Assembly (NCBI GenBank): GCA_951406725.2
Contig: OX597828.1
Span: 72,912,001-72,976,000, forward strand
Direction of reading: 5' to 3'
DNA: 64,000 nucleotides
Origin: Octopus vulgaris
Taxonomy: Eukaryota
The number at the start of each line of letters is the position of its first letter. Position 1 is the stretch's first letter. Shown piece after piece: positions 3,612 to 19,962 of the stretch. The translations under genes were made by a program, and so were the position numbers. The notes beneath the pieces are model-generated. The model searched no databases, was not told where the DNA came from, and saw only the letters and a program-made list of their open reading frames with translations.

Positions 3612-3926
<315 letters not shown>

Positions 3927-7905: not shown

Positions 7906-8034
7906 GTATGGTTTTAATACATTTTATTCAAAGAATAATTCACTTTTTGCAATAAAATTCCTTCAATAATAGAAACTGCGGTAGTTCTCAACGACAAGTA
8001 TTATGTTTGTCCTGCATACGGTGTCATTGGGCAA

Positions 8035-8352
8035 CGGCGTGGCTGTGTGGTAAGAAGCTTGATTCGCAGCAGTGTGCTTCTGGGTCCAGTTCTACTGCAT
8101 AGCATCTTGGGCAAGTGCGTATTACTACCGCCTCGAGCTGACAAAAGCCCTCTGAGCGAATGAGTGAATTTGATAGACGGAAACTGAAAGAAGCCCGTGT
8201 GTGTGTCTTCGTGTCTTTGTTTGTTTCCCATCACCGCTCGACAGCCGGTGCTGATGTGTTACGTCCCCGTAACTTAGTGGTTCAGCAAAAGAGACTGATA
8301 GAATAAACAACAAGCTTTGCAAAAAAGATGCTGGTGTCTATTCATTCGACTA
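8035..8352 (+). mobile_element. SINE family C
   Basis: gtggctgtgtggtaagaagc...cttgggcaagtg...agacggaaactgaaagaagcc; homologous to 35513-35916 and 48852-49295. Confidence 0.8.
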
Positions 8353-8356
8353 AGAA

Positions 8357-8765
8357 TTGCCAACATAACATGGCGGTCCTGGTTTAGGACGAATGTTGCT
8401 CTAAATTAGCCCCAGGAGAAATTGTCTCCAGCTGACTATAGAACACGATCTATGTCCTTATGTTTTCGCAGAAGGGAATCTAGCACCCCCACTCAACCCA
8501 AAACAATATCTGTGTATCGCGATTTCCGGGTTATTTCCCTTCATCAGCACAGAATAATTGTTCGGCTAGAGGTGCTGATGAAGAAAAATAACCCGGAAAT
8601 CGTGATACAGAGATATTGTTTTGAGCTGAGTTGGGGTGCTAGATTCCCTTGTTCGAAAATATAAGGACACAAATCGTGTCGTATAGCCAGATGGAGACGA
8701 TGTCTCCTGGGGCTAAATTACAGCAACATTCGTCCTAAACCAGGACTACCATGTTATGTCAGCAA
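8357..8765. mobile_element. Foldback element (about 195-bp arms), probably a Penelope-like inverted pseudo-LTR
   Basis: 8357-8550 is the imperfect reverse complement of 8572-8765, with a 21-nt loop. Hammerhead motifs lie next to the loop. Confidence 0.8.
8509..8553 (-). ncRNA. Minimal type I hammerhead ribozyme
   Basis: Minus strand TCTGTG CTGATGA A GGG-aaataa-CCC G GAAA TCGCGA TA CACAGA: perfect 6-bp helix I, canonical CUGAUGA and GAAA cores, palindromic helix III (AUCGCGAU), AUA cleavage triplet. Positions 10.1-11.1 form an A.G mismatch. Confidence 0.65.
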
Positions 8766-8876
8766 ACAATCTTTACTCGAGAGTACTGTTGCTGAATATC
8801 TCCCGTTGTGAGATTTACAAATAGTAATTTTCAAAACCAATGTAACTGTTAAATGGTGGGGAAACAAAGACGCAAA

Positions 8877-9224
8877 TGATTGCGGGTTCAGTCTCACTGT
8901 GTGGCACCTTGGGCAAGTGTCTTCTACTATGGCCTCAGGTCGACCAACGCATTGTGAGTGGATTTCGATGACGGAAACTTAAAGAAGTCCATGTGCGTGT
9001 GGGCGCGCGCGCATATTTCTATGTATGTTTGTCCCCAGCATCGCTTGACAACCGATGTCGGTGTGATTGCGTCCTCGTGACTTGGCGATTCCGCAAAAGA
9101 AACCGATAGAAAAAGTACTAGACTTACAAACAATAAGTCCTGGGGTCGATTTGTTCGACTAGAAGGCGGTACCCCAGCATATTCGCAGTCAAGTGACTGA
9201 AACAAGTAAAAGAGTAAAAGAGTA
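8877..9224 (+). mobile_element. SINE family C
   Basis: gggttcagtctcactgtgtggcaccttgggcaagtg ... tgactgaaacaagtaaaagagtaaaagag tail. Confidence 0.85.
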
Positions 9225-9548: not shown

Positions 9549-10015
9549 ATATATTTGATACCAAAGAGGAGATTGTTGGTTACTTGATGAATGTCTTCAA
9601 CAAGATTAGCAACCGCATGGAAAGCATCGAAAACAGTTTGGTGGGTATAGATACGAAACTCGCGATGGATGAATGCAATAATGGTCTATTCCAACAGAAT
9701 CAAAATTCCGATTTCTACAACTTTGACCTCGTGGTCGATGGCAAGAACTTATGTGATAACAACTCGCAAACACATTCCCCACCGCTCAACCGGCAACCCA
9801 AAGAAAATCTCTCTGACAGTAGACAGTCTTTTACTACCGAAGTTCAATATCATGGTAATCCGCAAAAGGACTGGTATGACCGAAGCCTGCGATTTGGGAG
9901 TTCGAAGAGTGACGGCAGGCCAAACAGAACACGTAAGCAAATGGACAGTGTCACAGAAAATGTAATTTCAAGATCTGTCCCTTTACACAGTAAATATTTT
10001 AGTCACGAGGTATGA
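9549..10015 (+). CDS. TRPC: TRPC-family channel terminal coding exon (coiled coil + C-terminal tail)
   Basis: Acceptor tttatttctag; the phase 1 join gives GAT. Open for about 155 codons ([31 protein letters not shown]...FSHEV) to TGA at 10013-10015, with non-repetitive composition. Confidence 0.8.
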
Positions 10016-15695: not shown

Positions 15696-15804
15696 GTGTA
15701 TAAAGCAGGTTTATAACTTCTGCTAATATACATATATATAAATGTGGCCATTGATCGATGGTAACGGCATTCCCTAACACGATGCTAAGGAAATGGCATA
15801 AATG

Positions 15805-17568
15805 CTGCAGAAACAATACTGTCTTTAGTGATCTCACTGATATTGGCATAAGAGAAGCGAAAGGAAGTGATTCCCAACATAAAATATCGGACATTACCTT
15901 CACTGCCTCAGACATCATAGCAGCAATAAAGGAGGCCAAATACTATTCTGCTGTAGGCCCTGATAGATTCCCCGCTAGTCTCCTGAAGGGATGTAGACAC
16001 CAACTAGCAGTCTCTTTGACCAACCCCTGGAGAAATTCTTTAGACTCAGGTTATATACCGAAACAGCTCCTATCCCAGTCTGTCATCCTGGTTTTCAAAC
16101 AGGAAAACAGATCCCTCGCATTCAACTATCGCTCAATCTCACTCACCTTCCACATCATTAAAGTGTTTGAAAGAGTGGTAAGGTCAAGGATAGTTGACTT
16201 CCTGGAGATCCACAAACTCCTAAATGCAAATCAGCATGGCTTTCGCTGTGGCATGGAATGTCTAACACAGGCCTTATACCACACTGAAGATATACTTAAA
16301 GCCTTTGGAACAGGTTCGAACTCTGATGTCATATATCTTGACTTCAGTAAAGCGTTTGACAGGGTTGACCATAATAACTTACTCTCAAAATTGGCAAATG
16401 TTGGAATCCGTGAAAAACGCCTACACTGGATTAAGTATTTCCTGGCGAATAGAACACAACATCTTGTAGTTGATGGAGTCCACTGAAGCCCAGCAAAAGT
16501 CACCAGTGGTAACCCCAGTGGGGGTCTTGGGCCCTCTCCGCTTTATAATTTACATAAAAAACCTTACCAGCGTCGTAAATCACTGTCAAGTGAAAATATT
16601 TGCTGATGACTCTAAGCTCCAGCAAATCATCAATGAAGAAGAAGACCGAACTCAACTCCAGTCTGATCTACATGCGGTGAGTCAATGAGCAGACAAAAAC
16701 AAAATGCTACTAAACGAGGAAAAATTTGAGCTGATGCATTTTGGAAGAATGTCTATACCACAACAGCCATACTCTCTTCCTTCAGGGGAACCGCTCACAG
16801 CATCTAATAATATCAGAGAGCTATGTGTAATTGTTCATAACAATCTCAGTTGGAGTGCCCACACCAACAATAAGGTCGATATAGCTCGTAGGATGAGCAC
16901 CTGGATCTTAAGAACCTTCCGGTCCAGAGAACAAGGTGTCATCATTCCGCTTTTCTCCTCCTTTGTACGGCCACACCTCGAATATTGCTGCCCCTCGTTG
17001 TCTCCCCATGCAAAACAAAACATCTGGAAAATTGAATCACCCCAGAGGGCACTCAGTAAACGAATTGAAAGCATGACTGATCTTGATTACTGAGGCCGCC
17101 TTAAAGCCTTGAAACTCTACTCTCTCCAGCGCCGCCGCGAGCGATGCATCATTTATACAATGTGAACAATATACCGCCAGCATTGCCCAAACGACCTGAA
17201 CATTAGTTCACCCAAGGCTAGAACCAGGGGCCATACGTCCCTTTCCCAATTCCAGATCACAACATATAGGTACACTGCGACACTATTTCTTTTCCTCAAA
17301 AGGTCCTGCCTCTTTAACATTGTCCCAAAACTGATCAAAGAGGAAAAGGATCCCATCACCTTTAAACGAAGTCTGGACAGATTTCTTCAAGGAATACCAG
17401 ATAGGACACTCATACCTGGATACAACGCACGCAACAAGAACCCACTGCTTGAATGGACCCTAAACAAAACTTAACTTAAAATGGATTTAGATAATCCTAT
17501 CAGGTGGTGCTATTAAGGTAGACATGGCCTGGAACAATCTTTGGTCGAAACATATCTGAGGTTATCTG

Positions 17569-18459: not shown

Positions 18460-19962
18460 GGTACAAAGGGGTGAATCACAGGAAGAACGTTTCTGATTAT
18501 ATGTTTATTCAACCAGAGCAGATGTGAACTAAACAACAACAGCAGTAGCAGCAGCGGCGGCGGCAATAATCATAACAAGTTTACAGATGTAGACTAGATC
18601 CTAGTGAGAATACAACTTGTCCAGGTTGGACCCGTAAAATAGAGGTTCATCTGGGGCCAAGGTACATACTTGCCTTTTGGTTTGGTGTGTTTCCCAAAAT
18701 TGAAATTCTCTTATATAAGTAGACGTTTTCTCAGATTCCAGGAGCAAGCCGGGCTTGAGAGTCTTGTCCCCTCCTTGCACGCACTCGTCTCTCGTAAGCT
18801 TTGGTGGAAGGTTTCTTATAGTACAAAGAGTACGGTTAACTATTCAACGTCGATGCGAGTAACTTCTGCAAGTAGTAGCGAACAACACAACGAGAGATGC
18901 TGCACGTTTCAGTATGCCTTATATGTTGACGTCTGCAACATGGCAAGAACTGCTTATTGCAGATTGCACCATGGGATCAACTACTACAATTAGTTATATG
19001 TAGCATAGTAGTGACTACTGCGTTCACAGTGTGGAGTTTGAAATTAATTACCCTGTGTTGGCGGTCAGGTCCATTCGTAATTATATATCTGACGCCGCCT
19101 CAAGCTAATCCATTAATAACCTCTGTGCCATGCCTCTGGTCTGCGAGAGATGACCTGGCGATATAACAATAAGAACAGACTAAAATAACACTAAAATAAA
19201 TAGCCGTGACTTGAGACTATTTATTGGAACTAAAACAACAGGAAAATATGATAATGGATTCTAAGTAAGTCAGAAGTCCCACAGTTTTGAAAGGAGGAAG
19301 ATTGAGGATGAAATCGATCCATCGCTCGACTGATGCATTTTATATTAGACATCGGAGGGACGAAAGGCGAAACTGAGTGGGAATTGAACTCAGGATGCAA
19401 TAAGCAGGAAGAAATTATACTTAAAGACAGTTTTTCGAACGCGCTAATGATTCCACCAATATGAAGGACAAGCAACACTAACAACAACAACGACGATGAC
19501 CACGACACAACGTCGAGGCATTACAAATAGAAATAGCCGAACATAATGGCTAAATAAATCGAGATTAATGTTACATAGATTATCTTAATAAGCCATACTA
19601 ACTACTGTCGAATATAACACACACCAATAATTATTACTGATCAAGGGAAATAACTCTCATACACATTTTTAAAATGCAGTTTTCAAGGGAAATAACTCTC
19701 AAACTTTTGTGAGGTTACCTCCCTTTAAATTTAGTTTCCATCAAATCTAGTTTCCATCAAATCTAGTAACCATCGTTCCAACGAACTGAAGAGGATGCTG
19801 TTCGATGAAATACGTAAAGATAAACCATGTTGTTCTGTGTAGTGGAACAATCAAGATGTATTACACTTGCTGCGGTGACCAAGCGCTTTCTGCATCTTCG
19901 CAGATCTTCGTGGTGGTCAGAAGAGAGGCGGGCAGATGGACTCTACCTGCTAGAGTGACAGT

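Follow-up and report, generated by a model that had tools for sequence, protein, structure and literature searches.

The window analysed here is a stretch of 64,000 nucleotides from Octopus vulgaris (contig OX597828.1, positions 72,912,001 to 72,976,000 of the forward strand), in which a TRP-box exon matches TRPC chains on the plus strand (best E 4e-15) and the host gene additionally matches the Ion_trans domain (E 2.5e-5). An acceptor-flanked open frame further downstream is probably the terminal exon, which would make the intron in between the last one of the gene (Table 1). Within this intron lies an inverted repeat with two arms of 194 nt (8357-8550 and 8572-8765) that are 88% complementary and separated by 21 nt. 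This confirms an earlier note on this DNA, which had described a palindrome of about 410 bp in an intron of a TRPC gene read from the plus strand. The note had let the element end with the palindrome at 8765, but it continues for 70 bp to about 8832-8835: the arms of the window copy end at positions 158 and 225 of the family monomer introduced below, showing that the insertion reaches ~8835 and carries its tail on the right side. The 21 nt between the arms were found at the spacing given before, but they do not represent a loop; they are element sequence upstream of the ribozyme holding an extension of its helix I, and the true inversion junction lies at 8572-8574. In a genome-wide search this junction gave one exact match, which is the window copy itself, and one match with a single mismatch. 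Two SINE copies flank the insertion (window ~8030-8356 and ~8880-9210), the left of which is missing its 3' part where it meets the element. A later deletion probably removed ~12-15 nt of the element's A end, and with it the target duplication and the missing part of the left SINE. Elsewhere in the window (15755-17470, plus strand), broken fragments of a LINE-type reverse transcriptase were recognised by eye from the translation.

Table 1. Features at the insertion and in its host gene (window coordinates; monomer positions and sites A and B as used in the text).
Feature	Position	Strand	Remarks
Whole insertion	8357-8835		two head-to-head, 5'-truncated copies of a ~350-nt retrozyme monomer; without target duplication
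Inverted (short-end) arm	8357-8574	-	monomer ~290-350, then 1-158; ~12-15 nt short of family site A
Direct (long-end) arm	8572-8835	+	monomer 315-350, then 1-225; stops at family site B
Inversion junction	8572-8574		3-nt overlap common to both arms; essentially unique in the genome
~55-bp tail	8778-8832	+	between site A (~8777) and site B (~8832); on a single arm only
Intact type I hammerhead motif with extended helix I	8502-8562	-	predicted cleavage after AUA, between 8515 and 8514; A.G at helix II base
Sense hammerhead copy	8572-8613	+	helix I cut short at the junction; with four substitutions; inactive by prediction
TRPC TRP-box exon, host gene	3639-3779	+	upstream of the intron
Probable terminal exon, host gene	9551-10015	+	acceptor-flanked open frame, assignment tentative; no family match

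For the minus-strand hammerhead that the note had proposed at 8509-8553, the CUGAUGA core, the GAAA, all three helices and the AUA site were found in type I order. Helix I comprises 6 bp and, past an internal loop, 6 more bp, which reach into the supposed 21-nt loop; helix II has 3 bp and a 6-nt loop, and helix III 2 bp and a palindromic tetraloop. The Watson-Crick pair 10.1-11.1 that closes helix II is missing from family 1, the repeat family of the window copy, where an unusual non-canonical A.G takes its place. PLE (Penelope-like element) hammerheads have been reported in pairs, the two motifs lying on opposite strands at a distance of 100-700 bp, and include a U3-A8 core variant; the minimal PLE form has a helix I of 4-5 bp and a helix II of 7-8 bp (PMC4209133). 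The window motif shares with this form the type I topology and the palindromic helix III, and its sister family also the U3-A8 pair. However, its long helix I with internal loop and its short helix II represent the canonical retrozyme form, and the assignment to the minimal PLE type was therefore not upheld. An Rfam scan of 1,601 and 77 bases with E values up to 10, a check proposed in the note, returned no hammerhead family, only microRNA-like hairpin scores below threshold. The copy on the plus strand is damaged as had been noticed before: it keeps CUGAUGA and GAAA, lacks three helix I bases (8569-8571) and is substituted at 8584, 8585, 8603 and 8610, one of these changes being at a CpG. For a transcript through both arms a fold of about -300 kcal/mol is predicted, and forcing a hammerhead into it costs 65 kcal/mol. 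Both motifs are thereby predicted to be locked in the hairpin, with neither folding from read-through RNA, so that the window copy probably has no effect on the TRPC pre-mRNA. A short direct duplication at 19626-19700 of the window weakly resembles the ribozyme model (E 0.003), but it has no GAAA at the required place and is probably no hammerhead.

The unit of family 1 is a non-coding monomer of 350 nt with a GC content of 40.6%, which at two loci is repeated in tandem, head to tail, with a period of 350 nt and a single hammerhead in every unit (L003 with three motifs, L009 with two). A query with one arm yielded 2,255 first-look candidates, of which 40 were scored; the best full-length matches were 89-92% identical, and arms differ from the family majority by a median of 5%. 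An exact 27-mer occurs 1,370 times genome-wide and its reversed control 0 times. Since both arms retain this 27-mer in 13 of 61 two-arm loci, the family is estimated to comprise ~3,900 arms in roughly 2,000 insertions. The copies are clustered on one contig: 32 of the first 100 matches fall within its initial 7 Mb, and others group at 106-112 Mb and 201-205 Mb. By word shares of 0.55-0.72, family-1 sequence also appears in sequencing runs of five organisms from five studies; the run index listed no RNA run among those carrying it. An excess of same-strand A-to-G changes of the ADAR type was not seen across 162 loci, the largest imbalance being 5. Hammerhead core bases are 96-100% conserved across family arms, partly by ascertainment, and the mismatch rate in the core is 18/725 vs. 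5.1% elsewhere, a difference confounded by base composition and subfamily structure.

Family 1 resembles the metazoan non-LTR retrozymes, examples of which are those of mussel (350-390 bp) and Rtz_353 of axolotl, in having tandem monomers within 150-450 bp, one type I hammerhead in each, a GC content under 50%, no LTR and target duplications of more than 4 bp (Cervera and de la Pena, 2020; PMC7229834). Its hammerhead recalls HHR_Amex2 of axolotl in two details: helix III consists of 2 bp capped by a tetraloop, and helix II is mismatched at its base, with A.G in family 1 and U.U in HHR_Amex2. Unlike known retrozymes, most family-1 copies are dispersed, shorter than a monomer and two-armed rather than organised in arrays. 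Inverted arms or tails are not described for retrozymes in the available text of PMC7229834, where the word "inverted" occurs 0 times. A literature search, with most subscription papers, supplements, Repbase and Dfam outside its scope, gave no account of family 1 or of the pairing of its ends reported below; family 1 is apparently an undescribed family of non-LTR retrozymes. The note's description of a non-autonomous, multicopy, retrozyme-like and Penelope-linked element was borne out.

A search model built from 26 family-1 copies and run over 38 sequence sources yielded a sister family with a monomer of 362 nt and 2,724 candidates, the copies being ~97% identical. The two families are identical in 225 of 375 columns (60%; score 156, shuffles at most 33.5). 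Nine hammerhead pairs are changed on both sides between them and eight of these are still paired, including C3-G8 to U3-A8, a covariation that rests on two well-sampled families with pairs assigned by hand and with which a third family (one copy) mostly agrees. This bears out the conservation of core and helices that the note had expected among genomic copies; within the copies of family 1 no covariation was found. The helix II base pair is A-U and G-C in the sister families vs. A.G in family 1, and the hairpins downstream covary too (7 of 38 predicted pairs). The sister family (L079:12-290; L223:5737-6290; L225-L254) is younger, has a U3-A8 core and a GUC site and sits mostly in (TA)n, and it is the better candidate for current activity. 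In the third related hammerhead (L046:2132-2352, one copy) the core is of the U3-A8 type, and helix II has a G-C pair at its base. A further short motif that resembles a hammerhead, with C3-G8 core and 8-bp helix II, lies inside a different repeat (L140:2004-2040; L093:5626), which in L140 ends in an (AAT)n tract.

The architecture of the insertions was counted over 162 distinct loci from four differently chosen sets (180 were fetched, and 18 re-fetches of the same insertion were dropped). One of these, the unbiased set, comprises 76 loci taken as the first places on one contig with the 27-mer, a choice that is independent of the arm ends. Two divergent arms are present in 132 of the 162 loci and convergent arms in 0. 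The outer arm ends cluster at two sites about 55 nt apart, site A (~167-177 nt past the cleavage site) and site B (~220-231). The 132 two-arm loci divide into 104 with one end at each site (AB), 3 AA, 3 BB and 22 with one unclassifiable end. AB thus accounts for 104 of 110 classifiable loci (binomial p 3e-24), and for 50 of 54 in the unbiased set (p 4e-11), where an independent choice of ends would give about half. In the sister family the ends homologous to A and B lie at 178 and 237, and AB was found in 11 of 15 two-arm loci and AA or BB in none, with a query that favoured B ends and two loci that look like duplicates of one insertion. Target duplications scoring at least 9 accompany 70 of the 104 AB loci vs. 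3 of 312 shifted controls; 57 of the 70 are 12-15 bp long, including 1-4 nt common with the element end, and they contain 76% AT vs. 63% in the flanks. In a template test on the 104 simple arms of the unbiased set, 34 get to the cleavage site and 29 run through it, and 7 arms in this set are longer than one monomer, most arms being shorter. Arms that cross the cleavage site and outrun a monomer indicate that the copied RNA was an uncleaved multimer or a circle. Run-off of the reverse transcriptase at a cleaved 5' end was considered and rejected, the stop rate at the site being 0.20 per 20 nt and that of its neighbours 0.11-0.31.

The insertion in the TRPC intron is probably an aged, non-coding retrozyme insertion made from ~350-nt tandem monomers and integrated by the enzymes of an endonuclease-bearing PLE, which would have primed at both DNA ends. 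In such an event, a Penelope-type GIY-YIG endonuclease would make a cut in the target that is staggered by ~12-15 nt, and reverse transcription would be primed from both target 3' ends by means of short overlaps, on one strand at A and on the other at B, presumably on an uncleaved multimeric or circular RNA. Both cDNAs would stop at variable points and be joined by short overlaps, resulting in a fold-back with one tail. By analogy, the ribozyme's likely job would be to cut multimeric array transcripts into monomers able to circularise, and it might cut as a dimer through its palindromic helix III. Against this explanation stands the window copy itself, in which the A end is shortened and a target duplication is absent. 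Further points against it are that the search described below yielded no autonomous partner, that Rfam gave no hammerhead match, that helix II has A.G at its base, that family-1 copies do not covary among themselves, that RNA-seq reads do not pile up at the cleavage site and that the tail is longer than those described for PLEs. Priming at A and B would probably occur within one dimeric RNP. The simplest reason for the strict A/B pairing would be a dimeric enzyme acting on one RNA, the alternative being two RNAs loaded asymmetrically. The more specific model of asymmetric twin priming, i.e., a Penelope reverse transcriptase/endonuclease dimer that starts on one uncleaved or circular retrozyme RNA at site A for one strand and at site B for the other, we hold with evenly divided confidence. 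In the twin priming of L1 elements both target strands prime cDNA, leading to a 5' inversion with target duplication. There, the two segments cover separate stretches and one of them starts at the poly(A) end, whereas in family 1 a single region is copied into both arms, starting at two fixed sites inside the element.

Similar products are known from EN+ PLEs, whose insertions in rotifer cases show an inverted pLTR, a tail and 8-10-bp duplications (PMC3846280), and for which an inverted copy and a 30-40-bp tail, often at one end, are given in the legend of Fig. 2 of PMC8557442. Moreover, two internal start sites matching the tail, extension of both strands, an uncleaved template and a predicted dimer were reported (PMC11167929); in vitro, the anole PLE did not differ in start site between the strands, which alone does not predict a strict A/B pairing (PMC11167929). 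Family 1 shares with these insertions the 5' truncation, the head-to-head inverted copy, the tail at one end, the AT-rich target duplication, the two internal starts and a template left uncleaved. It differs in the absence of an RT/GIY-YIG frame, in a tail of ~55 bp vs. 30-40 bp and in duplications of 12-15 vs. 8-10 bp, and the pairing of one short with one long end was measured as near-strict in family 1. The use of PLE enzymes by retrozymes was inferred before from co-occurrence and sequence likeness, the mechanism being called unresolved (Li et al., bioRxiv 10.64898/2026.07.22.740005).

The inverted arm might instead arise by self-priming on an antisense template, a reading found in PMC3846280, and head-to-head junctions with short overlaps or palindromes would fit it. 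However, self-priming leaves unexplained why there are two different fixed outer ends, both of which adjoin the target duplication and overlap their copy of it by 1-4 nt, and we consider it unlikely. It is likewise quite improbable that no separate retrozyme exists and that the copies are fragments of an autonomous PLE, derived from its ribozyme-bearing end (pLTR). Such fragments would be expected to carry the same insertion signature, most arms are indeed shorter than a monomer, and in Xenopus a relationship links retrozymes to pLTRs (bioRxiv 10.64898/2026.07.22.740005). But long arms run from monomer position 226 back into 225 and not into coding sequence, as seen in the 7 unbiased arms exceeding one unit and in the arrays L003 and L009, and tblastn with two PLE proteins gave no match inside any of the 162 elements.

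The note had treated the hairpin as the unit of the family and the back-to-back ribozymes as its defining trait, which would make the palindrome itself mobile as a fold-back element with two ribozymes. The high share of palindromic copies is compatible with this, as are four junction pairs that recur among 9 loci. The 132 two-arm loci, however, have 127 distinct junction pairs, and the window junction matches only itself exactly. The recurrent junction at monomer 20 and 42 was found in separate insertions (L137 vs. L211 and L212) with A and B swapped once and with different target duplications, and junction hot spots lie near monomer 30-50 and near 302. Furthermore, just 4 of the 61 two-arm loci in the unbiased set carry both hammerhead cores, as a by-product of two long arms. 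A mobile palindrome is thus largely refuted and very improbable: the unit is the 350-nt tandem monomer, and each insertion creates a fold-back of its own. A fold-back or MITE DNA transposon was rejected since the ends are unequal by ~55 bp and the centre varies between copies.

It is equally improbable, to the point that it can hardly be maintained, that the sense-strand ribozyme was degraded by selection protecting the TRPC pre-mRNA, a possibility raised in the note. It would account for an antisense motif with 0 changes in 45 nt beside a sense copy with four. However, the loss in helix I is the inversion junction itself, and four changes are ordinary: in a set of 51 copies that span the ribozyme and were picked without regard to the motif, 25 show at least 4 changes, 16 retain core and helices and 0 are unchanged, making the intact antisense motif the less usual one. 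The sense arm is overall less diverged than the antisense arm (14/261 vs. 17/224), and the hairpin would mask the sense motif anyway. As the sense motif is junction-clipped and ordinarily aged, selection is not needed.

By itself the locus is an ordinary one, an aged and probably inert repeat. Family 1 adds apparently undescribed retrozymes from an octopus genome, and the target duplications, mirrored arms and one-sided tails counted over 162 insertions provide genomic evidence on how retrozymes integrate. The near-strict pairing of short and long ends together with the read-through of the cleavage site is modest, testable evidence and gives a concrete prediction for the in vitro PLE system. 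If asymmetric twin priming is true, the "inverted copy plus one tail" of PLEs would be explained and animal retrozyme circles would be shown to be Penelope substrates. RNAs of 350 nt, for which two diverged families conserve both sites and the surrounding hairpins, would then be minimal test substrates.

In three RNA-seq runs, of which the species may not be that of the host and the library type is unspecified, 1,869, 1,513 and 1,428 of ~12 million reads match family 1. They run in both directions, at a low depth that follows the truncated genomic arms. Loose ends were seen at site A, and read ends did not pile up at the cleavage site in these runs. Reads that go back across the monomer reference reflect contiguous sequence and are not evidence of circles. 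A>G places (19) exceed T>C places (7-9), a difference that without matched DNA is not readable as editing. The reads fit passive transcription of scattered copies and say little about circles.

As to an autonomous partner of family 1, the link of the arm to a Penelope RT/GIY-YIG frame that the note had envisaged did not emerge: no such frame is linked to the element in the 162 loci, and the coding elements of 40 PLE loci obtained from a GIY-YIG search, which mostly sit in (TA)n, have no DNA in common with the monomer. In this search, 150 of 6,136 candidates were scored, most of them Neptune-like, and a partner of Penelope or Poseidon type may have escaped. Family 1 itself is inserted in ordinary AT-rich DNA. 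Among the coding elements is a young family with many copies (L081-L086, L092, L095, L096, L100) and an intact RT/GIY-YIG frame of 781 aa, which we take to be Neptune-like from its zinc-finger linker. This frame is preceded by one of 479 aa of no Pfam family, and the pLTR carries a minimal U3-A8 hammerhead-like motif (L071:904, minus strand). The Neptune-like elements end in (TA)n, as does the sister family, suggesting that they are candidate drivers of the latter.
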